Position numbers and translations under genes: made by a program. From assembly GCA_041666845.1 (NCBI GenBank), contig JBAYGC010000005.1:584-64583 (forward strand): a DNA stretch of 64,000 nt. Direction: 5' to 3'. This stretch comes from Patescibacteria group bacterium. GTDB lineage: Bacteria; Patescibacteriota; Patescibacteriia; UM-FILTER-42-10. How positions within the stretch are numbered: position 1 is the first letter of the stretch; each line of letters starts with the position of its first letter. Of the stretch, positions 7,004 to 35,285 are shown in pieces. The notes below the pieces were generated by a model. It made no database searches and was not told the DNA's origin. It saw nothing but the letters and a program-made list of their open reading frames with translations.

Positions 7004-9268
7004 ATGGCAACAACTCAACCCAAAAAGCGAATAAAAAAAGAACATCTCGAAGAAGAGAAACAACCCATTTTAAACCCCGGGACACGCCGAGGGATTATTG
7101 TTGTTTCCCTGTTTGTGGTTGCGGCGATCAGTATCTTAAGCTTCTTTGAGCTGGCCGGCAGTGTCGGCAATTATCTTGATCAGCTGCTGAGAGTTATTTT
7201 CGGTTGGGGCTCATTCTTGTTTCCGATCATCCTTGCCGTTTTCGGTTATATGCTTATTTTCCCGGACAAATATTCCCTGAAGGCGTCCAATTATCTGGGT
7301 GTGTTCTTACTGTTACTGGCACTGCTCGGGATCATGCATCTTTTTGTCGGACAGGAAGCGGCGGTAGAAGCGATTGACGAGGGGCGCGGCGGCGGCTATT
7401 TGGGTTTAGTTATCAGCTTGCCACTCTTAAAAATTATGGGAATCTGGGCGACATCAATCGTACTGGTTGCCTTATGTTGCATTGCTGTTTTGATCGTATT
7501 TGCCACTTCAATTAACCGGCTGGTGGAAGGCGGCAGTGTCATCGGTTCGGTGATGCTCCGGATCAGGGAATTTTTCCGCAAAATTAACTACCGAGTTTCG
7601 GAAAGCCGCATGGAAAAAGAAGCCAGCGCGGAAGTGGAGGAAGAGCGTTCTTTTAGCAGAAAAACTATTACTCAAAAAGCAGATTTGGAAGACGGAAAGG
7701 AAGAAGTAATCAGCGCGGTTAATGAAGACGTGGAAACGGGTGATCAGATGAAAATTTTTAATAAGAATAAACACCGGCCGAAAATCGACATCCCGATTGA
7801 TTTGCTCGAGGGTACTTCCGCCAAACCGACCAGCGGTGATATAAATTTGAATAAAGAAAAGATCAAAAAGACCTTACAGAACTTCGGCATTGAAGTGGAG
7901 ATGGGTGAAACAAACGTCGGTCCGACCGTGACACAATATACGTTGAAACCGTCCGAGGGTGTGAGAATTTCACAGATCGACACACTGCAAAATGATATTG
8001 CGCTGGCCTTGGCGGCCCATCCGATCAGAATTGAGGCGCCGATTCCGGGCAAATCACTGGTTGGTATTGAAGTGCCGAACCAGAAAGTAGCGGTGGTTAA
8101 GCTGAAAGAAATTATTCAGAGCGAAGCGTTCAAAAAGCGGGAGTCAGATCTGAATATTTCCTTAGGCAAGGACGTTTCCGGTTTTCCGTGGGTAGCGGAC
8201 ATGGGTAGCATGCCCCACCTTTTAGTGGCCGGTGCCACGGGTTCCGGGAAGAGTGTCTGCATCAATTCAATTATTATCAGCCTCTTGTATCAGAATTCAC
8301 CGGATAAGCTAAAACTGATTTTAGTTGATCCGAAACAAGTGGAACTGACCATCTATAACGGTATACCACATCTGCTGACGCCGGTAATCACTAAGGCGGA
8401 TAAAACAATCAATGCGCTTAAATGGGCTGTTGCCGAAATGGAAAGAAGATTTGAATTGCTGTCACAAACCGGCCAGCGGAATATTAAAGGATTTAATGCC
8501 GGAGTTGCAGAAGGACTGCCATATATCGTAATTGTGATTGACGAACTGGCGGATCTGATGAGCGTGAATGCACCGGAAGTGGAAGGATCTATTATCAGAC
8601 TGGCGCAAATGGCCAGAGCGGTAGGTATCCATCTGGTAGTAGCCACGCAACGGCCGTCAGTGGATGTCATTACCGGTCTGATCAAAGCGAATATCACTTC
8701 CCGCATTGCCTTTACGGTTGCTTCGGGCACCGATTCCAGAACTATCCTGGATTTCGCCGGGGCGGAAAAACTCTTAGGTAGTGGTGATATGCTTTACGTA
8801 TCCGCCCAACTTTCCAAACCGAAACGTCTGCAGGGTGCGTATGTTACAGAACGGGAGATCCGGAATATTGTGGACTTTTTGAAAGAAAAAGGCGAACCGG
8901 AATATAACGAAGAAATTATTACCAGGCACGGAGCCCATGTCGGTGAAAAGGGCGAATCACTTTCGGAAGATGACGATGTGTTGGTGGACGATGCCCAGGA
9001 AATTATTTTGGAATCACAAAAAGCCTCCGCTTCTTTTCTGCAGAGGCGTATGCGGATCGGCTACGCGCGTGCCGCCCGCATTTTGGATATTTTGGAAGAG
9101 CGGGGAATTATCGGACCCGCGGACGGAGCTAAACCGCGTGATGTATATGTCAAAGATAAGGATGATATTGATATCATTTCTGATCCGGATAACCAAGATG
9201 AGGAAGAGGTTGTCGAGTCAGAATCCACCGAAGAAGAAATAGCAGAGGAAAAACAGAATAAACTTTAA
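7004..9268 (+). CDS. ftsK: DNA translocase FtsK/SpoIIIE
   Basis: N-terminal TM helices. Motor domain with Walker A GATGSGKSV and a gamma-domain (QRRMRIGYARAARILDILEERGIIG). Confidence 0.93.
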   Translation: MATTQPKKRIKKEHLEEEKQPILNPGTRRGIIVVSLFVVAAISILSFFELAGSVGNYLDQLLRVIFGWGSFLFPIILAVFGYMLIFPDKYSLKASNYLGVFLLLLALLGIMHLFVGQEAAVEAIDEGRGGGYLGLVISLPLLKIMGIWATSIVLVALCCIAVLIVFATSINRLVEGGSVIGSVMLRIREFFRKINYRVSESRMEKEASAEVEEERSFSRKTITQKADLEDGKEEVISAVNEDVETGDQMKIFNKNKHRPKIDIPIDLLEGTSAKPTSGDINLNKEKIKKTLQNFGIEVEMGETNVGPTVTQYTLKPSEGVRISQIDTLQNDIALALAAHPIRIEAPIPGKSLVGIEVPNQKVAVVKLKEIIQSEAFKKRESDLNISLGKDVSGFPWVADMGSMPHLLVAGATGSGKSVCINSIIISLLYQNSPDKLKLILVDPKQVELTIYNGIPHLLTPVITKADKTINALKWAVAEMERRFELLSQTGQRNIKGFNAGVAEGLPYIVIVIDELADLMSVNAPEVEGSIIRLAQMARAVGIHLVVATQRPSVDVITGLIKANITSRIAFTVASGTDSRTILDFAGAEKLLGSGDMLYVSAQLSKPKRLQGAYVTEREIRNIVDFLKEKGEPEYNEEIITRHGAHVGEKGESLSEDDDVLVDDAQEIILESQKASASFLQRRMRIGYARAARILDILEERGIIGPADGAKPRDVYVKDKDDIDIISDPDNQDEEEVVESESTEEEIAEEKQNKL

Positions 9269-13320: not shown

Positions 13321-15081
13321 TTACCACCAAGCTAGTCTTTTCATATGTTCTTCGTATGCAGTGGAATTTTTTTGAAATTCGGTAAAAGACTTATTGAATA
13401 GGCCTGCAGATATTGGGCCCCAATGATCTTTGCTTTTATCCGCTTCATCTAACATCATTTTGAAAGGATTTTCACCGAAGCGTCTTTGATATTTCCAGGC
13501 AAATCTACCAGGAGGCCCCCAACCACTTTGATTGACGTGTGAATACTCAAGGGCAAAAAGTATTTCAAAATAATCGAATAGATATTCGTAATTTCTTCCT
13601 AAGAAAAGTAAGTCTTCTAAAGTTGGCTGTAAAGTAGTAAACAGTTGCTCGCTTCTCGGCGCATAATGCCTTTCTCGACCAGGTATCCACTTAAATGATT
13701 CATGGATTTCTGACAAATTTGCCCCCACTGGAGTAACAAGTGCTTCACTTTGATCCGACAGGGGCTCTGGTCTTACTGGAGTTTCAAAAATAATCTTTAG
13801 CGCACCATAATTCTGACTGGACAGGGCAGTAATACCTGCCGAATACATTAGTAGTTGAATTGGATACCAAGTAAATCGAAGCCATAGCACCGTTCCTGAT
13901 GAACCTTTATCGGCTTCAGCCAAACGTGTAAATATTTTATTGAGCTGTTGTAATTGTTCGCTGTTACCCCATTTAGCCAACAAGATAGAGATAACTTGTA
14001 GGTCTTTCGATAATTCTTCGTATTCACTCAAACGTTGAATAAATTGATCCTTTTGAGCAGGGATTCCCTGTACTGGGAAATTACGTAAATCAGTTTCATC
14101 CAAAAAATGGCGAATGTGCTTTGAAACAAAATCATCTAATTTGATCTTGTTTGAAGGAACTGATAGCAATTCTTTGATTGTGTCGGCGATCGGTGTTTTT
14201 GGTTCAAATGGAGTCTCAATTTGAGGTGATGTATTCACTAAGATATCAACCTCTCCAGGCTCACCCTTTTCAGATGATTCGGGCTGAGGGGAGGAATTCT
14301 TTTTTTGTTCTAATACAGAGGTGTCAAAAATAAATTCGCCGTCACCATCCACAAAACCATAATGAGGAGTTTGGTGTGAGTATTGATCATTAGCAACATG
14401 GTCAAACACGTATGCCATTACGCCACTTGCCGAGATAATGCCGTCTTTTGTTGAAGCTGCCCCATCCAAAGCGTCTAGTAAGTGAGAAGTAAAAATCGAA
14501 TGGTCCGGTCTTGTTCCGTTCCCATCTGCGACTGTCTCATTAGCTTTACCGGCAGTAAGTAGTTGGCGTGAATATCGTTTTAGCATGTCTCCAATAAAGC
14601 GCATACTGCCTAGTGATGGGGTACGAAGAAAGGCTAATCCCCCATAGCACGCATCCATAAGAAAGAATATGTGCTTGGCAGGAATTAAATCAGAATTTCT
14701 AGTAAATTCGTCCCATCGAATTAATGTATCAATTTCATCTGGTTTGCCTTCGGCTGGAACAAGATAGCCGACCTCACCTCTTTTTCCAGAAACAGTATGG
14801 CCATGACCAGCATAAAATACTATCAACCTGTCGTCGGGGAGAGTCTTTTTAAAATCAAGAAATGATTTATTGATGGTATCCTTTGTTGCGTCTTTGTCGA
14901 TTAGTAAGGAAATATTCGATTTTGGAAACTGAAACTTTTTTTCTAAAATATCGGCAACTGCTTCGGCATCACTTTTTGCATACCCTAAAGGAGGGGCAAA
15001 TTTGTATTGATTAATACCAATTATTAATGCCCAGCTATTTGTATATTCTGGTTGGTAGACTAGTTTTTCTTGGGAGGACAT
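13321..15081 (-). CDS. Caspase-like peptidase (C14/CHAT-type His-Cys dyad) with ~330-aa uncharacterised C-terminal domain
   Basis: The N-terminal ~250 aa have caspase-fold spacing: ALIIGINQY...VFYAGHGH (catalytic His)...FLMDACYGG (catalytic Cys). The C-terminal half has no recognisable motifs. Confidence 0.75.
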   Translation of the reverse strand: MSSQEKLVYQPEYTNSWALIIGINQYKFAPPLGYAKSDAEAVADILEKKFQFPKSNISLLIDKDATKDTINKSFLDFKKTLPDDRLIVFYAGHGHTVSGKRGEVGYLVPAEGKPDEIDTLIRWDEFTRNSDLIPAKHIFFLMDACYGGLAFLRTPSLGSMRFIGDMLKRYSRQLLTAGKANETVADGNGTRPDHSIFTSHLLDALDGAASTKDGIISASGVMAYVFDHVANDQYSHQTPHYGFVDGDGEFIFDTSVLEQKKNSSPQPESSEKGEPGEVDILVNTSPQIETPFEPKTPIADTIKELLSVPSNKIKLDDFVSKHIRHFLDETDLRNFPVQGIPAQKDQFIQRLSEYEELSKDLQVISILLAKWGNSEQLQQLNKIFTRLAEADKGSSGTVLWLRFTWYPIQLLMYSAGITALSSQNYGALKIIFETPVRPEPLSDQSEALVTPVGANLSEIHESFKWIPGRERHYAPRSEQLFTTLQPTLEDLLFLGRNYEYLFDYFEILFALEYSHVNQSGWGPPGRFAWKYQRRFGENPFKMMLDEADKSKDHWGPISAGLFNKSFTEFQKNSTAYEEHMKRLAWW

Positions 15082-23169: not shown

Positions 23170-24258
23170 CTAGTTATCACTTTTTGCTGAAGCTTGTTGA
23201 ATCCGCCGACAGCGTTCCAGGTGATAGTCATAAAAAACACATCCTTCGCCAATACAGCTGGTACGTGGGCAGACGGTGGCAAGTTGGTTCGGATCAATCG
23301 CTTTTTTTAAAATTTCCTTAATTTCTTCTAAGCTCAATCTGGTTGGCGTCACGCCCTCCGGTGCGATCCCGCCGTTCTGAATGCTATTGGCAGTGGTGTC
23401 ATAATACCATTCTTCCACCCCCTTCAGGCGAGCGGATTTTGCCAGTTCATCAATGCTGGTGATTTCTAAGATAGCATCTTTCTTGCGTGCCTCTTCTATC
23501 CGGAGCATGACAGCGACGTCTTTGAGGTTGATGTCGCGCATTTGCCTGGTAATCAAGTTGGTGTGTCCCGTAGAAAGTCTTTGTACGACTACATCCGCTT
23601 TAGTGTCCGGATTTGCCCGCAAAAAACCCACCAGACTAATATCATCATTTTCTACGACCACGATTTTTACCAGTTTCTTACCCTGGAATACTTCAAACTG
23701 GTCGGTCTTTTTTTCCTGCTGGAGTTTTTCCCATTCCTGCGGAAGAACGGTCATTCTTTTGCGTTCCTCGCGGTAGTGTGAAACAAAAATCGGCATGACA
23801 ATATTGATAATCTTCTGCGGCTCACTTTGGTATTCGCGGTTCAGGTTCATAATCAGGCCGGAAAGGCCGAAAGCCCGGTCGATCGGGTCGCTCGAGATAA
23901 TCCCTTTTCCTTCCAGATCGTCTCTTTTGACATAAGTAATCAGTTTCTTCAGTGCTGGGTCATTTTCCACACCTAGGAATTTTGCCACCAAAGTAGTGGC
24001 ACATTCTCCCGTGTTATCTTTACCGCCTTCCTCGGTGTGGTGGTCAAATTTTCCGCCACCCATGTCGATGAGTAAAATACCCTCGCTTTCCAGTTCATCA
24101 GTATTCCTGCCTTCCGGAACACTGTTCCAGAATTCAATCTTGCTGTTTCTAACCCCCGGGAACTTTTCTTCGCCAAAAAGCTTCAATAACATAATCGCTA
24201 CGATATTGTCCGGATGCGGACGGGGAAAGATTACGATTGTATGGATTGGTTGGGACAT
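23170..24258 (-). CDS. MYG1/UPF0160-family metal-dependent hydrolase (putative 3'-5' exoribonuclease) with C-terminal Cys-rich zinc-ribbon
   Basis: N-terminal H-P-D-N-I-V-A-x-x-LL matches the MYG1 motif H-x-D-E-A-L-A-x-x-LL. LLIDMGGGKFDHH matches MYG1 VVDVGGEYD...YDHHQ. C-terminus is CPRTSCIGEGCVFYDYHLERC. Host-like GC. Confidence 0.6.
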   Translation of the reverse strand: MSQPIHTIVIFPRPHPDNIVAIMLLKLFGEEKFPGVRNSKIEFWNSVPEGRNTDELESEGILLIDMGGGKFDHHTEEGGKDNTGECATTLVAKFLGVENDPALKKLITYVKRDDLEGKGIISSDPIDRAFGLSGLIMNLNREYQSEPQKIINIVMPIFVSHYREERKRMTVLPQEWEKLQQEKKTDQFEVFQGKKLVKIVVVENDDISLVGFLRANPDTKADVVVQRLSTGHTNLITRQMRDINLKDVAVMLRIEEARKKDAILEITSIDELAKSARLKGVEEWYYDTTANSIQNGGIAPEGVTPTRLSLEEIKEILKKAIDPNQLATVCPRTSCIGEGCVFYDYHLERCRRIQQASAKSDN

Positions 24259-24560
24259 GGGGTTTTTATACTGTCATCAAAGTAATTACTGAATGTCACT
24301 TCGACCGTAGTGGACCCGCCTCGCGTCGACGAGTAGAAGCGAGTCGAGGCGGGGAAGTCTATAGATTTCTCGGCTTCGTCTTGCTTTGCGCGACTACGCT
24401 CGAAATGACACACAGGAGGGAAGTAATGGTTTCATACATAAGTATAACGCAAAAAGCTTTATAAAAAAAGTAGGCCCCCGGAGTAAATCATCATGCAGAA
24501 TTGCAGACGAAATACTCGCGGGGGCACAGGGGTGAAAGAGCGAAACGATGCTGGCGAACG

Positions 24561-25616
24561 CTAGCGGATGGTTTCCTTCACCAGGTCGATGAAGGTCTCC
24601 GCGCGCCGGCCGGTCGGAGTGGTGTTGCGAGCGCCACCCGAACCGTTGAGGATCGCGTTGATCCTCGTGTCATAGAACCAGAGGTCCTTCGCGTCACGGC
24701 CGTCGGTGCGGTAGGCACTCTCGGTCGCGATGATGACGTCGTACAGTCGGTTCAGGTTGATCCGCGGCTGGACCCGGTTGGAGGTCAGGATGACGATCCG
24801 CTTGGAACGACTGACTACGATGATCAGGTCGACCCGACCATCGTTGAGGAGGGCGCGGGGGACACGGGTGTCGTCGGTGTGGATCAACACACCGCGTTGA
24901 TCCCGACCACTGGACTTGAAGACGAACTTCGTCGTGTCCTTGTGGTCGAGGATGTCGATCGCCTTGTCCTTGGCCACCTCGTTGGCGGCCTTGCACTTGG
25001 CGAACACCTCGCGCCACCAACGAGCCTCGCGGAGGATCTCACTGTCGGTGGCGCCGGTGATCATCAGGTTACGGATGTAGCCTGCCATACACCAGGGGGA
25101 CTCGTGGTTGCCCAGATGCTGGACGAGCGTCTGGACGTCGGGATGCCGACGGTCCACGGGGACCTTCAGCTCCTTGCCGATGCTGTTGACGTAGGCGTCG
25201 ATCACGCGGAAGATCCGCGAGATGACGGTCATGGGGGCATACCCTTGCTTGTACATCTCCCGAAGGAGCCATACGAGCGAGTAGGGCAGACCCTTAAGTC
25301 CACCCGTCTCGTTGTTCTCGTTGCAGATCGCAACGAGCGGGATCAGGCGGTGACTGCGAACCTTCAGGGTCTCGGCGACGATCTCCGTCGCGGAACCCTT
25401 ACCGGCCACTTGGTACTTGTACGGACCGATGTCGATGATGAACATGCGGTCCCGCTGCCACTCGTCGATCTGGGACTGTTCCGGCTGGAACTCGCCCGAG
25501 AGCACGAGGTTGAGGTCTTCGAGCTTCGTGACCGTGAACCTGCAGTACAGGTACAGGGCGACGATCTTGTCGAACACCGGACGAGCGGGGATGACGACGC
25601 CAGTAAACCGCTTCAT
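24561..25616 (-). CDS. Divergent, probably catalytically inactive paralogue of the adjacent MYG1/UPF0160-like protein (GC ~60%)
   Basis: Collinear with 23170..24258 (PARP/FPRP N-terminus, FIIDIG vs LLIDMG, FYDTRINAILNGSGGARNTTPTGR vs YYDTTANSIQNGGIAPEGVTPTR). It lacks both His motifs (VFD for HPD, GPYKYQ for GGGKFDHH). Strong SD AAGGAG sits 6 nt upstream of ATG at 25616. The antisense 407-aa ORF was rejected. Confidence 0.7.
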   Translation of the reverse strand: MKRFTGVVIPARPVFDKIVALYLYCRFTVTKLEDLNLVLSGEFQPEQSQIDEWQRDRMFIIDIGPYKYQVAGKGSATEIVAETLKVRSHRLIPLVAICNENNETGGLKGLPYSLVWLLREMYKQGYAPMTVISRIFRVIDAYVNSIGKELKVPVDRRHPDVQTLVQHLGNHESPWCMAGYIRNLMITGATDSEILREARWWREVFAKCKAANEVAKDKAIDILDHKDTTKFVFKSSGRDQRGVLIHTDDTRVPRALLNDGRVDLIIVVSRSKRIVILTSNRVQPRINLNRLYDVIIATESAYRTDGRDAKDLWFYDTRINAILNGSGGARNTTPTGRRAETFIDLVKETIR

Positions 25617-25865
25617 GGCTTTCTCCTTCGGCCAGAAGTAGGTGCACATGTGTCTCGGGAATCGAGACGGTCATGTTTTCAAGGAGCGGATCTCCTTGTT
25701 GGAGCCCGCGATCACTTACAGTGATCCTAGGCTCAAACAAAAAGCTTTCAGTGTACACATGGAGAGACTCTGAAAGCGCTGAATGTTGACATAGCTCTCT
25801 CCTCTGTCCTCCGTAGTGCCGCGAATGCGGTACGAAGGAGTGACAGAATTCTATGTTAACAGGCC

Positions 25866-31250: not shown

Positions 31251-33161
31251 GTGGGAAAAGAGAACAATACATCAGACGAAAAAATACCGGTTGAAAATAA
31301 ACCTGAAAAAGGTAAGCGGTTTTCAAAAGTTTTTTCAGTTATCAAAAAGAATAAATCAAATAGTGCCGGTTCTTCGGACAGAAATAAATGGATTAAGACG
31401 CAAAAATTAATAGACAAAAAACTGGTAACTTCTTTGAATGATAAGAAAATTCCGACCTATCGCCAGTTTAAATATTTGCCTCGCTATCTTTCCAAAAAAG
31501 AATCAAACATAATCCAAATTGCGTTGTTTGTGTTTGCTGTGTCTTTCATTTTCGTCTTGGTAAGAATATATCAGAATGTAACATACATTATTCCACGACC
31601 GGGCGGTGAATATACGGAAGCGCTGGTCGGATCACCAAAATACATCAATCCGATTCTTTCCCAGACCAATGATACGGATATGGATATCACCAGGCTGGTT
31701 TTTTCCGGTTTGTTGAAAATTAATCCGGATCAGCAGTTGGTTAATGATGTGGCGGAAAGATATGAAATATCTGAAGATCAGAAAGAATATACTTTTTATC
31801 TCCGCAAGGATGTAAAATTTCACGACGGGGAGGATTTGAATGCCGATGATATTCTGTTTACTTTCGAAAGCATTCAGGATGTGAGTTACCGGAGCCCTTT
31901 ATATCTTAATTTCAGTGGTGTAGCACTGCAGAGGGTTGATGATTATACGGTCAAGTTTGTTTTGCAGGAACCATTTACTCCATTTTTGTCCAGTTTGACT
32001 TTCGGCATATTGCCGGAACACATTTGGGCTGAAGTTTCACCTGAATCAACGTATCTTGCCGAATACAATTTAAAACCGATTGGTTCCGGCCCGTTCAGTT
32101 TTAATAACTATACTAAAGACAAAAACGGGAACATTAAATCATACGAGTTAAAAAGATTTGACGGTTATTACAGTGACAAACCATATCTTGACCAAGTCGC
32201 GTTTAAATTCTATTCGGATTCCATCTCAGCTTTGGAAGCGGCGGAAAATAAGCAGGTAGATGGTATCAGCTTTGTCCCCAGTGACGCAAGAGAGGAGCTG
32301 AAAAAGAGGAATGGCAATATTGAGTATTATTCTATGCGCCTGCCCCAGTATACCGCAATATTTTTCAACCAGAAGAACGAATTATTAAAGACCAAAACTG
32401 TCAGAGAGGCGTTGGCGTATGCGGTCAATAAAGTATCAATATTGGAAAATGCTTTAGGTGGGGAAGGCGAAATAATCAACGGTCCGATATTGCCGGGTTA
32501 TATCGGCTACAATCCGGAGATTAAGAAATACGATTTCAATCTGGATGAAGCCAGAAGAATACTGGAAGAAGACGGCTGGAAGTATCCGGAAGTTGCGGAA
32601 GGTGAACCGGCGGCGACTGTTCGTTCAAAAGACGGTGCGGAATTGGCATTTGCGATTTCTACGATCAACTCACCGGAGTATCTGGCAACGCTTAATATAA
32701 TTAAAGAGGCCTGGGAGAGTATCGGAGTACGGTTGGAAGTGAAGGAGTATTCTACAAAGGATATCCAAAAAAGGGTAATCAGCCCGCGTGCTTATGAAGC
32801 ACTGTTGTTCGGAGAGATTGTCGGTACTGATCCGGATCCGTATCCTTTCTGGCATTCTTCACAGAGCAGAGACCCGGGGTTGAACCTGGCCGTATTTTAT
32901 AACAAGGATATTGATCAATTATTGGAAGAAGCAAGAAAAACTAATGATGCAGAACAGCGCCGGTTGAAGTATCTGCATTTTCAGAATATTCTTGCCGATG
33001 AACTTCCCGCAATCTTTTTGTACAATCCCGTATATACATATGGCATAGATGAAAAAGTAAAAGGACTGGCAGGACAATATATTTCGGTGCCTTCAGACCG
33101 TTTCTCGGGTATCGTAAATTGGTTTATTAAAACCAATCGTAAATGGGGGAAAGAGTCATAG
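31251..33161 (+). CDS. ABC transporter substrate-binding protein, family 5 (peptide/nickel type), membrane-anchored
   Basis: GTG start. N-terminal TM, then an SBP_bac_5-like domain of ~520 aa. Confidence 0.75.
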   Translation: MGKENNTSDEKIPVENKPEKGKRFSKVFSVIKKNKSNSAGSSDRNKWIKTQKLIDKKLVTSLNDKKIPTYRQFKYLPRYLSKKESNIIQIALFVFAVSFIFVLVRIYQNVTYIIPRPGGEYTEALVGSPKYINPILSQTNDTDMDITRLVFSGLLKINPDQQLVNDVAERYEISEDQKEYTFYLRKDVKFHDGEDLNADDILFTFESIQDVSYRSPLYLNFSGVALQRVDDYTVKFVLQEPFTPFLSSLTFGILPEHIWAEVSPESTYLAEYNLKPIGSGPFSFNNYTKDKNGNIKSYELKRFDGYYSDKPYLDQVAFKFYSDSISALEAAENKQVDGISFVPSDAREELKKRNGNIEYYSMRLPQYTAIFFNQKNELLKTKTVREALAYAVNKVSILENALGGEGEIINGPILPGYIGYNPEIKKYDFNLDEARRILEEDGWKYPEVAEGEPAATVRSKDGAELAFAISTINSPEYLATLNIIKEAWESIGVRLEVKEYSTKDIQKRVISPRAYEALLFGEIVGTDPDPYPFWHSSQSRDPGLNLAVFYNKDIDQLLEEARKTNDAEQRRLKYLHFQNILADELPAIFLYNPVYTYGIDEKVKGLAGQYISVPSDRFSGIVNWFIKTNRKWGKES

Positions 33162-33198
33162 AATATACAAAGAGTGGTGGTAATAAAGAAAAAAATAT

Positions 33199-33216
33199 GC
33201 CGAAGTGGTGAAACTG
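33199..33216 (+). repeat. Direct duplicate of the first 18 nt of tRNA-Leu (GCCGAAGTGGTGAAACTG), 108 bp upstream of the intact gene
   Basis: Exact match to 33307-33324. It is followed by a structured segment with overlapping 9-bp and 13-bp hairpins. Confidence 0.7.
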
Positions 33217-33306
33217 CCATGAACCACTAAAGGGTTCATGGCTATCACGTACCCTTTAGTGGTACATGATGGTATGGAATAAAATTAATAATCATTGAAA
33301 CAATCT

Positions 33307-33393
33307 GCCGAAGTGGTGAAACTGGTATACACGCAGCGTTCAGGACGCTGTGGGCGCAAGCCCGTGGGAGTTCAACTCTCCCCTTCGGCACCA
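33307..33393 (+). tRNA. tRNA-Leu (anticodon CAG), type II with long variable arm
   Basis: Manual fold: acceptor GCCGAAG/CTTCGGC. D-stem GTG/CAC. Anticodon stem CAGCG/CGCTG with loop TTCAGGA. Variable arm GGGCGCAAGCCC. T-arm GGGAG-TTCAACT-CTCCC. Discriminator A plus an encoded CCA. Confidence 0.85.
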
Positions 33394-33509: not shown

Positions 33510-35285
33510 ATGAATCCAAAAAACACAAAACATCGCTCCAGGCAGAATAACCGGATTAGAGTATACCGCTCAGATCCCGCTGAACATAAGCAGGAAAAGA
33601 AAGAAGACACAAGTAAAAGAAACGAGCCTACGCTTAAAGTAATTGTAATGGGTGGAAATGAAGAAGTGGGACGCAATATGACAATTCTGGAATACGGCAA
33701 AGATATTATTATCATCGATATGGGTTTGCAGTTTCCGGAAGAAGATATGCCGGGGATTGACTATATTATTCCGAACATTTCTTACCTCAAAGGAAAAGAA
33801 AAAAATGTTAAAGGAGTGATTATTACGCACGGTCACTATGACCATATCGGTGCGATCCCACATTTAATGAATAAAATCGGTAATCCGCCGATCTATGGCA
33901 GTCCCTTAACATTGGGAATTATCGCCAAGCGCCAGGAAGATTTCAAGCAGAGCGGTAAGCTGAATCTGAATTCAGTCAGTAACAAGGATATTCTCACCAT
34001 TGGCCGGTTTAAAATAGAATTTTTTGGTGTCAGCCATAATATCCCGGGGTCTTTCGGGGTGATCATTAATACTCCGGTCGGACCGATTGTCCACACGGGA
34101 GACTTCAAGCTGGACCTACAGCCGGTTGGTGATGTGGAGCCGGATATCGCCAAGATTGCCAAGTTGGGGGAAAAAAATGTACTAGCCTTGCTGTGTGACA
34201 GCACCAATGCAACTCAGCCGGGACATCAGTTTACAGAGACCGAGATTCAGGGGAACTTAGAAGATATTATCCGGCTGGCTCAGGGCAGAATTATTGTCGG
34301 GACATTCGCCTCGTTACTGATGAGGGTACAGCAGATTATCATGTTGGCGGAAAAATACAACCGTAAAGTTGTAATTGACGGTTACAGTATGAAGACTAAT
34401 ATTGAAATTGCGCAAAAGTTGGGTTATCTGAAAATCAACAAGGGCACTTTATTGCCGATGAGTGAGTTAGAAAATTACCCCAGCCGCAGAATTCTGGTGC
34501 TTTGTACCGGAGCGCAAGGAGAGGGTAGGGCGGTGTTGATGCGTATCGCTAATCGGGAACATAAGGTAATCAGAATCGAACCGGAAGATACGGTTGTATT
34601 CTCATCTTCAGTCGTACCAGGTAATGAAAGATCCGTCCAAAGATTGGTTGATACTTTGTATCGCGAAGGCGCGGAAGTAATCAATTATAAAATGATGGAC
34701 ATCCATGCGGGCGGTCACGCAAAACAGGAAGACCTTAAACTAATCATTAAGTTGATTAACCCGAGATATTTTGTTCCGATTGAAGGCAATCATTCCTTTT
34801 TGAAGGTGCACGCAAAAGTCGCGGAATCAATCGGGTTTGATCCGAAAAAGATTTTTGTCGCGGATAATGGACAAATAATGGAATTTACCAAAACAACCGG
34901 CCGCCTAACATCAAAAAAAGTTCCTTCTGATTATGTGTTTGTGGACGGATTGGGAGTTGGTGATGTTTCTAACGTAGTTTTGAGGGATCGCCGAATGATG
35001 TCCGACGACGGTATGCTGGTTGTAATCGCCACAATCGACGGAAAAACAGGTAATCTGATCGGTAATCCGGATATCATTTCCCGCGGGTTTGTGTATATGA
35101 AAGAGAATAAAAAACTGATTTCAGACACACGTGAGAAGGTCAAAAATCTGCTGAAAGACAAGCACCCGAATTCTTCAGCCAACGATGCGTATATAAAGAA
35201 CAAAATCAGGGATGATATCGGCCAGTTCTTGTTCAGCAAAACGCAAAGACGGCCGATGGTCTTGCCGGTAGTTATTGAAGTATAG
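33510..35285 (+). CDS. rnj: Ribonuclease J
   Basis: Metallo-beta-lactamase motif HGHYDHIG. beta-CASP and C-terminal domain. 591 aa. Confidence 0.9.
   Translation: MNPKNTKHRSRQNNRIRVYRSDPAEHKQEKKEDTSKRNEPTLKVIVMGGNEEVGRNMTILEYGKDIIIIDMGLQFPEEDMPGIDYIIPNISYLKGKEKNVKGVIITHGHYDHIGAIPHLMNKIGNPPIYGSPLTLGIIAKRQEDFKQSGKLNLNSVSNKDILTIGRFKIEFFGVSHNIPGSFGVIINTPVGPIVHTGDFKLDLQPVGDVEPDIAKIAKLGEKNVLALLCDSTNATQPGHQFTETEIQGNLEDIIRLAQGRIIVGTFASLLMRVQQIIMLAEKYNRKVVIDGYSMKTNIEIAQKLGYLKINKGTLLPMSELENYPSRRILVLCTGAQGEGRAVLMRIANREHKVIRIEPEDTVVFSSSVVPGNERSVQRLVDTLYREGAEVINYKMMDIHAGGHAKQEDLKLIIKLINPRYFVPIEGNHSFLKVHAKVAESIGFDPKKIFVADNGQIMEFTKTTGRLTSKKVPSDYVFVDGLGVGDVSNVVLRDRRMMSDDGMLVVIATIDGKTGNLIGNPDIISRGFVYMKENKKLISDTREKVKNLLKDKHPNSSANDAYIKNKIRDDIGQFLFSKTQRRPMVLPVVIEV

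Follow-up and report, generated by a model that had tools for sequence, protein, structure and literature searches.

Integrase-encoding genomic islands and prophages leave attachment (att) duplications of parts of transfer RNA (tRNA) genes, and integration in tRNA genes has reportedly been divided by Williams, in 2002, into sublocation classes. Free-standing homing endonuclease genes, such as the GIY-YIG and LAGLIDADG genes at fungal mitochondrial atp6 and cox and the seg and mob genes of T4, insert at gene ends together with a duplicated segment. GC-rich palindromic mini-elements also occur in AT-rich genomes and include the GC clusters of yeast mitochondria, the double-hairpin elements of Allomyces and bacterial palindromes resembling repetitive extragenic palindromes (REP) or miniature inverted-repeat transposable elements (MITE). 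Here we analyze a 64-kb stretch of a Patescibacteria genome (contig JBAYGC010000005.1; 64,000 nucleotides (nt), all of which is referred to as the window), in which a tRNA-Leu(CAG) gene is preceded by an exact duplicate of its own 5' end and by a segment that can fold into two alternative hairpins. We put at about even the chances that this feature is a decayed scar, devoid of any open reading frame (ORF), of a nuclease-driven, homing-like insertion or replacement of a tRNA-Leu gene.

Described disruptions of tRNA genes differ in the element involved. In the tRNA-dependent lysogeny of actinobacteriophages, the element destroys the host tRNA gene and supplies an isotype-matched tRNA; these phages measure at least 40 kb, encode a tyrosine integrase and use a core of ~10 bp (Guerrero-Bustamante & Hatfull 2024, PMC10865867). 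The tRNA-Thr gene of Caldiarchaeum subterraneum is disrupted by a 1.8-kb recombinase-encoding element located between its pieces, with a link to bulge-helix-bulge (BHB) introns (Sugahara et al. 2012, PMC3293823). Patescibacteria tRNA genes themselves are interrupted by group I introns, including at position 35/36 (Nakagawa et al. 2026, PMC13011429).

The plus strand of the window has two exact copies of the 19-mer TGCCGAAGTGGTGAAACTG (33198-33216 and 33306-33324); none of 100 shuffles yielded two matches, and no third copy was found in the window even with up to 3 mismatches. Relative to the tRNA-Leu(CAG) gene, the downstream copy runs from base -1 to base +18. This gene, the sole tRNA gene of the window, is continuous and complete, with no need for the joining of separate pieces seen in split or intron-containing tRNAs, and has the acceptor stem GCCGAAG/CTTCGGC, discriminator A and an encoded CCA. 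The displaced upstream copy consists of the 5' strand of the acceptor stem and the first half of the D arm, ends inside the D loop and, according to the repeat search, is complementary to the 3' acceptor strand of the tRNA. The two copies are spaced by 108 nt, leaving 89 nt between them in which no ORF was found. A sequence-only reading of the same DNA had noticed the duplication and called the tRNA; both points are borne out, the tRNA being found by ARAGORN and by a local Rfam scan (52.4 bits vs a gathering score of 29). It had been missed by the whole-window scan at the gathering threshold, a fast-filter mode whose negatives for short RNAs are not reliable. A 36-nt extended repeat (83% identity) returned by the repeat search was rejected: its upstream extension, in AT-rich sequence, was no better than 239 of 500 shuffles, and the repeat length was therefore set at 19 nt. 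The repeat and hairpin structure is real and no assembly artefact, as an independent European Nucleotide Archive assembly (L310) aligns colinearly and over 7,216 nt differs from the window by 1 mismatch, the intergenic region being unchanged. An assembly chimera was likewise rejected because L310 and the window, L002 and L001, and L007 and L003 (see below) are matching pairs, each from different assemblies.

The inserted segment starts with a long imperfect palindrome, the arms of which (23 nt; 33218-33240 and 33246-33268) are 87% complementary and include a perfect 13-bp core (ACCACTAAAGGGT/ACCCTTTAGTGGT). The hairpin formed by this palindrome is the minimum-energy fold (RNA, -30.7 kcal/mol, z -3.4; DNA, z -5.6), and a short hairpin (arms 33216-33225 and 33233-33242) is a mutually exclusive alternative to it; both overlapping hairpins proposed earlier exist. 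In two related loci, L003 and L089, the short hairpin is partly conserved, with uncompensated mismatches, and the second arm of the long palindrome is conserved in neither. The AT-rich spacer that follows, TAATAATCATTGAAAC, resembles the proximal flank of the tRNA gene in L089 (TAATAATCATTAAGAAC; 29 of 500 shuffles were equally good) and has no counterpart in L001; from this marginally significant match, the spacer may have travelled together with the present tRNA gene. The distal flank, upstream of the old copy, shows a weak likeness to the L001 flank (local alignment; 23 of 500 shuffles were equally good). Two other interpretations of the segment were discarded: the palindrome as an inverted plus a direct copy of the tRNA D arm (AGTGGT...TGGTAT), a likeness that is not significant, and the GTAT 3' of the hairpin as tRNA nt 19-22, a match too short to count.

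The locus was compared among the window and L310, L001, L003, L004, L089 and L090, with percentages denoting RNase J identity; L089 and L090 were the new close relatives among the matches listed in scans of genome and metagenome contigs, the clade being thinly sampled. The 108-nt unit is an insertion/deletion polymorphism among these relatives. In L001/L002 (99%), which present the empty site with one repeat copy, the 5' repeat is absent and the tRNA directly abuts the flank equivalent to the distal flank of the window; the upstream 19-mer of the window occupies the position of the gene start in its closest relative. Plain genes with no repeat are found in L004/L005 (95%) and L090 (86%), the sole intact gene having a GCCGAAG acceptor in L004 and a GGGGATG/CATCCCC acceptor in L090. 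L003/L007 (96%) and L089 (90%) share the junction of the window (TG/CCATRAACC...GTTCATRGC, the slash marking the junction; GGGGATGTGGTGAAACTG/CCATAAACC in L003/L007 and GGGGATGTG/CCATGAACC in L089), but their fragments are of the GGGGATG type. L003 is nested: 1) upstream lie a GGGGATG piece of nt 1-18 with the hairpin, a GGGGATG piece of nt 1-36 and GC-rich DNA; 2) the centre is an intact GCCGAAG-type tRNA; and 3) downstream lie GC-rich DNA, nt 36-58, and nt 45-87 ending in CATCCCCACCA. The outer pieces, when rejoined, form a tRNA-Leu(CAG) accepted by ARAGORN. L310, L001 and L003 come from one sample, ERZ27249449, in which three configurations therefore co-occur, and the distribution of the scar does not track RNase J identity, as it is missing at 99% yet found at both 96% and 90%.

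L001/L002 have a remnant of another kind ~110 nt downstream of the gene, consisting of a T arm (GGGAGTT), a 49-nt GC-rich insert and then CAACTCTCCCCTTCGGCACCA. A T-arm (GGGAGTT) remnant downstream of an intact tRNA-Leu occurs in two distant genomes (L001, 3751-3884; L304, ~1829-1931), the T loop being split in both by GC-rich hairpins of ~49 nt that are followed by a duplicated 3' end.

Comparative loci were anchored on rnj, the RNase J gene, with tRNA-Leu(CAG)-rnj linkage in 96 of the 169 loci fetched, and every tRNA-Leu found was used as a query against all loci. Extra tRNA-Leu pieces were located within 600 nt of an intact gene in 12 independent loci of the ~92 with tRNA-Leu beside rnj, always on the same strand; in the loci searched, none was on the opposite strand or farther away. 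Their topology is strict, with 5'-end pieces upstream (12/12) and 3'-part pieces downstream (13/13), i.e. a nested arrangement in 25/25. In L003, L027, L091, L097, L122, L048, L063 and L065 the acceptor of the pieces differs from that of the intact gene, whose stem is perfectly paired, indicating that whole genes must have entered. L027 is the mirror image of L003 (outer GCCGAAG, inner GGGGATG), and L091 and L121 are clean gene-in-gene loci; together with L003, the latter two make up the three loci in which the outer pieces rejoin to a second valid tRNA-Leu(CAG) according to ARAGORN. Such split outer copies were seen in the relatives only, always surrounding an intact inner gene, which often has short GC-rich sequences, complementary to each other and not the same from locus to locus, on its two sides. 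The breaks fall in the D loop, anticodon loop, variable arm and T loop, four positions in one tRNA among strains 96-99% related.

Tandem arrays were observed at two loci, each around a single intact tRNA-Leu(CAG): three 57-nt units (5' piece, CCCCGCGCC and spacer) in L121 (1400-2080) and four 102-nt units (spacer, GGTGCGGGG and nt 20-85) in L026 (1-290); the bracketing 9-mers are GC-rich and complementary. These arrays may have been expanded by unequal crossing-over between short repeats or may have been distorted by short-read assembly.

At seven further loci, a gene for a GIY-YIG nuclease of 78-80 amino acids (aa) lies between a displaced piece and the intact tRNA-Leu. In L048, at the same rnj locus, the palindrome CCTGCCTGCCAGCAGGCAGG splits a 5' half of the tRNA (nt 1-42) between its nt 21 and nt 22. 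Next come an ORF of 80 aa that codes for a GIY-YIG catalytic domain (Pfam E 6e-17) and an intact tRNA-Leu(CAG) with an acceptor of a different type. The GIY-YIG protein belongs to a family of 396 clusters (E < 1e-5) from Patescibacteria, Bacteroidota and other groups; its other matches are weak, to SLX1 (E 0.008), or sub-threshold, to group I intron endonucleases. Contigs were fetched for four Patescibacteria homologues (L297, L298-303, L304 and L305-308), and in all of them the design is the same, at tRNA-Leu(CAA/UAA) genes: flank, tRNA-Leu nt 1-21, palindrome, tRNA-Leu nt 22 to ~26-39, a spacer of 10-30 nt, the GIY-YIG ORF (78-80 aa in the cassettes), a few nt and an intact tRNA-Leu (CAA or UAA). 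L309, from Bacteroidota, has the mirror design, with an intact tRNA-Leu(CAA), the ORF and a displaced 3' piece bearing two palindrome copies in the T loop. ORF-less versions with the palindrome occur at the rnj locus in L063 and L065. In L293 (454-900; filed as viral in IMG/VR) the cassette resides on a tRNA-Asn-like gene, the 5' exon of which is duplicated around the GIY-YIG ORF. The GIY-YIG protein of the cassettes is predicted to cleave tRNA-Leu genes.

Two observations were made next to these cassettes. The downstream copy in L293 continues after GGCTGT (position 35/36) into group I intron-like sequence, at the site reported for Patescibacteria tRNA-Asn (PMC13011429). Directly 3' of the cassette-bearing tRNA-Leu of L048 is an ORF (1666-2385) with an ART-PolyVal ADP-ribosyltransferase domain (E 4e-8). 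In general, ADP-ribosyltransferase domains of the polyvalent-protein type are typical of mobile elements.

The palindrome of the cassettes, designated PAL, is the 20-nt perfect palindrome CCTGCCTGCCGGCAGGCAGG; all GIY-YIG cassettes examined contain it in their displaced tRNA piece. It is located at nt 21/22 in L048, L063, L065, L293, L297, L298 and L304; the tRNA loops in which it repeatedly resides are the D loop (nt 21/22), T loop and variable loop, and it is dispersed among genomes with a GC content of 38-68%. Exact PAL alone was found in 35 viral-collection contigs (38-68% GC), most of them without a nearby GIY-YIG ORF. The idea that PAL always stands beside a GIY-YIG gene is therefore false, since only L293 of these 35 contigs has the ORF nearby. 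In L286 (2239-2330; also L263, ~8570-8650), a tRNA-Met(CAT) carries PAL in its variable loop, between CACGAGG and TCGCCGG, and that of L286 is still called a tRNA by ARAGORN; tolerance of the insert may come from mimicry of a long variable arm. No description of PAL or of such cassettes was found in the literature searched.

The window has the layout of the ORF-less cassettes, namely native flank, D-loop-ended 5' piece, palindrome, AT-rich spacer and intact tRNA-Leu, and its displaced same-strand duplicate of a gene end (33198-33216) is like those in L048, L297, L298, L304, L305 and L309; an adjacent GIY-YIG ORF and PAL in the displaced piece are both absent from the window. Because this layout is common to the window and the cassettes, including L048 at the same locus, the window is read as a decayed scar that would derive from a nuclease cassette. 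The upstream 19-mer would then be the remainder of an earlier resident tRNA-Leu(CAG) gene, interrupted after G18 of the D loop by a DNA segment that would have had the palindrome first and the AT-rich flank and a complete tRNA-Leu(CAG), the present functional gene, last. Nucleotides 19-87 of the old gene, which would have repeated the new gene directly over 68 nt, were probably lost by recombination, the short 5' piece surviving; the nuclease ORF would also have been lost from the scar. Today the scar reads as inert DNA, adding at most a longer 5' leader removed by RNase P. With somewhat less confidence, short of even, we suggest that it is a decayed member of an undescribed family of tRNA-Leu-targeting mobile cassettes in Patescibacteria and Bacteroidota. 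A member of this putative family would carry a replacement copy of its target, the gene for a bare SLX1-like GIY-YIG nuclease of 78-80 aa and, in the D loop or T loop of the displaced piece, an invariant perfect palindrome of 20 nt; its targets would be tRNA-Leu genes and, in at least one case, a tRNA-Asn-like gene. With recurring invasion, lineages would exchange whole tRNA-Leu alleles that differ in their acceptor stems, and gene-in-gene 'Russian doll' loci would result.

Several findings weigh against deriving the scar from a nuclease cassette. The palindrome of the window differs from PAL both in sequence and in place (nt 18/19 instead of 21/22), and the window piece stops at the palindrome, not at nt 26-42 as in the cassettes. 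All six close relatives lack both a GIY-YIG gene, none being detected in the fetched flanks of L001-L007, L089, L090 and L310, and the CCTGCCTGCCGGCAGGCAGG palindrome, so that the link to the nuclease cassettes is one of architecture alone. Fragment and gene share the same acceptor in the window, and this locus by itself therefore offers no proof of whole-gene entry. The flank homologies are marginal in significance, and the GIY-YIG proteins consist of the catalytic domain only, without the DNA-binding domain of characterised GIY-YIG homing endonucleases. In addition, the repeat is identical over exactly 19 nt and has equal limits (-1 to +18) in the window and L003, which could point to a target-duplicating mechanism or a recombinase core. 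The exact identity, despite the GGGGATG fragments of L003 and L089, can be explained by a crossover between co-occurring strains in the shared TGGTGAAACTG or, alternatively, by the origin of L001 from a window-like genome through deletion between the repeats.

The sequence-only reading had regarded the repeat as the classic scar of site-specific integration, with a decayed tRNA paralogue or a small regulatory RNA as alternatives. The insertion scar in a tRNA gene stands, given that the upstream copy lies at the gene start of L001, that the 108-nt unit is present or absent among relatives and that such pieces recur phylum-wide; the integrase does not, as the displaced end is the 5' end, with its break in the D loop, a mere 108 nt separate the repeats, a third copy is lacking and no integrase was found. 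Integration by a tyrosine or serine recombinase, with the 19-mers as attL and attR cores and an element that was deleted to 89 nt or was tiny and cis-mobilisable, is nevertheless an alternative explanation, if an unlikely one; in a variant, the element disrupted the host tRNA and brought its own tRNA-Leu, the only part of the element to be kept. Elements that replace the host tRNA by their own provide a precedent (PMC10865867). The exact direct repeat of a tRNA segment that bounds the insert while the gene stays intact, the presence/absence polymorphism with its precise limits, the repeat limits shared with L003 and the palindrome CCATGAACC-7 nt-GGTTCATGG, with the 9-7-9 layout of a recombinase core site, all fit such an event, which predicts the nested topology equally well. 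No relative was found to combine the same duplication with a functional second tRNA, and a demand for a second att half is moot, as the two repeats would themselves be both halves. However, Pfam searches of the ~50 ORFs of the window revealed no integrase, transposase, phage gene or free-standing nuclease, and the flanks of the loci with fragments, 2.5-4 kb in length, were likewise free of integrase and phage genes. No matching attP was found, and the hairpin and the 5' region of this tRNA occur in no viral contig of IMG/VR (plasmid and phage GenBank collections were not searched); GGGGATG-type 5' ends are frequent in phage tRNA-Leu(UAG/UAA/CAA), with none in CAG, and are not informative on viral origin. 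Four break positions in one tRNA are unlike the fixed sublocation of a single integrase, and whole tRNA genes with their own self-consistent acceptor stems entered related loci, which a partial-tRNA attP cannot bring about. A displaced 5' end, which to our knowledge integrases do not usually produce, was also counted against integration.

Ordinary recombination between co-occurring strains or with taken-up DNA could have produced a patchwork, the tRNA core TGGTGAAACTG serving as a short homology anchor on one side and an illegitimate join on the other leaving a partial duplicate, with no dedicated mobile element. The three configurations in one sample, the likeness of the distal flank to that of L001 and of the proximal flank to that of L089, the recA gene in the window and a scar distribution independent of RNase J identity agree with this proposal, but it leaves unexplained the D-loop-break palindromes in many independent lineages, the identical palindrome and nuclease gene accompanying the pieces and the 12 of ~92 loci affected at one tRNA. 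We therefore consider it quite unlikely as the origin of the scar; inter-strain recombination probably contributes to its spread and loss instead. A decayed paralogue, i.e. a tandem tRNA duplication followed by deletion and by insertion of an unrelated palindrome in the upstream copy, has in its favour the same strand, the adjacency, the 108-nt spacing and the arrays of L121 and L026, which are expandable by unequal crossing-over. It is very unlikely, because random decay predicts 3' pieces upstream, and their counterparts downstream, equally often, whereas none was seen (0/12 and 0/13); moreover, the acceptor stems of pieces and intact genes often differ, the spacer has no significant similarity to the tRNA body or flanks, and none of the 96 linked loci has two intact tandem tRNA-Leu(CAG) genes. 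Most improbable is a functional RNA, either a leader in which the 5' copy and the exclusive hairpins control transcription or processing of tRNA-Leu, or a small RNA. Its structure is strong, alternative pairings exist and the upstream copy is complementary to the 3' acceptor strand, but the segment is absent from L001, the 99% relative, as well as from L004 and L090, in L003 and L089 the long hairpin is not kept and the short one has mismatches left uncompensated, neither a promoter-like nor a terminator-like site was detected, and Rfam gave no known family at this region beyond chance-level matches to miRNA-like hairpins. A group I intron or other known RNA was also rejected, with no Rfam match in the window region, L001, L003 or L008.

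Comparison with the known systems brings out both likenesses and differences. As in the att duplications of islands and prophages, a direct repeat of part of a tRNA brackets an insert, the gene is intact and the displaced piece lies outside; unlike them, the window has its 5' end displaced in the D loop, an insert of 89 nt and no integrase in 64 kb, and related loci received complete rather than partial tRNA genes. The gene-in-gene loci L003, L027, L091, L121 and L122 follow the logic of tRNA-dependent lysogeny (PMC10865867), but the incoming units are of 100-400 nt with at most a 78-aa GIY-YIG ORF, and no phage was found. Like the tRNA-Thr of Caldiarchaeum (PMC3293823), the locus is heterogeneous within a population and has a 5' fragment upstream of an intact gene; that case, unlike the window, is archaeal, recombinase-encoding and linked to BHB introns. 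Patescibacteria group I introns occur in the same phylum, and the outer gene of L003 is broken at 35/36, the position at which L293 has an intron-like insertion beside its cassette; however, the window tRNA is uninterrupted, no intron model matches the window, L001, L003 or L008, and the inserts are too short, one of them holding a whole tRNA.

Free-standing homing endonucleases are similar to the cassettes in that a nuclease ORF adjoins an intact gene and, farther out, a displaced duplicate of the end of that gene undergoes decay, and their cycle of invasion, decay and loss leaves ORF-less scars; the cassettes differ in their bacterial tRNA target, bare catalytic domain and constant palindrome on the displaced piece, and homing is here putative. 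With the GC-rich mini-elements PAL shares a short GC-rich palindromic form, many dispersed copies, a location in loops or other palindromes and an association with recombination hot spots. Unlike those of AT-rich genomes, PAL is a single 20-nt perfect palindrome found repeatedly in tRNA loops, in genomes spanning a wide GC range, and the window's own palindrome is different in sequence.

The locus order is secG, peptide-binding protein gene, tRNA-Leu(CAG) and rnj (Table 1). The native upstream flank starts at the stop codon of the solute-binding protein gene, which is likewise 5' of the tRNA in L001, L003, L004, L008 and L310, and, by its RNase J homologues, the host belongs to the Patescibacteria (candidate phyla radiation, CPR), near Komeilibacteria. 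The remaining genes of the window are housekeeping genes, including rpoB, rpoC, ftsK, recA, efp, ssb, uvrC, uvrD, uvrA, glyA, folD and ychF, together with a class I tRNA synthetase of the Trp/Tyr type. No GIY-YIG ORF was detected in the window by phmmer/hmmsearch and Pfam.

Table 1. Coordinates of features at the tRNA-Leu(CAG) locus of the window and of PAL in comparative loci
Feature	Position	Strand	Basis
Extracellular solute-binding protein (SBP_bac_5, family 5)	31251..33161	+	Pfam PF00496, E 4.7e-74
Distal (native) upstream flank of old gene copy	33162..33197	+	Same position as tRNA upstream flank in L001
Displaced 5' end of putative former tRNA-Leu(CAG) copy, base -1 to G18	33198..33216	+	Exact 19-mer repeat
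Short perfect hairpin GCCATGAACC/GGTTCATGGC, 10-bp stem, 7-nt loop	33216..33242	+	Inverted-repeat search
Long imperfect palindrome, start of inserted segment	33218..33268	+	Inverted-repeat search; minimum-energy structure in RNA and DNA folds
AT-rich proximal spacer, upstream flank of present tRNA gene	33269..33305	+	L089 match
Intact tRNA-Leu(CAG)	33307..33393	+	ARAGORN; Rfam RF00005, 52.4 bits
Ribonuclease J	33510..35285	+	Pfam RNase_J_b_CASP, RNase_J_C, Lactamase_B
PAL CCTGCCTGCCGGCAGGCAGG or close, sometimes compensated variants	L048 1268-1287; L063 523-542; L065 2171-2190; L293 515-534; L297 ~1461; L298 ~1446; L304 ~1280, ~1464; L309 ~1766-1807; L035 4385-4404; L066 4250-4269; L262-L296		

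Elsewhere in the window, the minus strand has a pair of neighbouring ORFs of 362 aa each, at 23170-24258 and 24561-25649, which are distantly paralogous (E 4e-6, with 30% identity across 100 aa); the pair (23170-25724) has no Pfam or Rfam match. The ORF at 24561-25649 lies in a GC-rich patch (0.55 vs 0.42), and a 407-aa ORF overlaps it on the opposite strand. A 586-aa ORF at 13321-15081 has a caspase (Peptidase_C14) domain and adjoins an unusually long ORF for ribosomal protein S6 (323 aa, of which residues 141-228 form the S6 domain).

For annotation, these data mean that repeats of tRNA ends in these genomes should not automatically be taken for integrase att sites or for the borders of islands: the 'island' here measures 89 nt, and its machinery, if any, would have been a nuclease since lost. 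Recurrent invasion and replacement of tRNA-Leu genes in these tiny bacteria is apparently undescribed, and an essential-looking tRNA gene of ultra-small genomes appears as a recurrent battlefield, its alleles being replaced at a fixed locus. In two phyla, displaced tRNA pieces show a tight association with a GIY-YIG nuclease consisting of the catalytic domain only and with a ubiquitous 20-nt palindrome. If the proposed cassette family is true, it would represent a new type of gene-targeted selfish element and a route for the horizontal turnover of tRNA alleles, and would provide a candidate structure-specific nuclease with its cis site.

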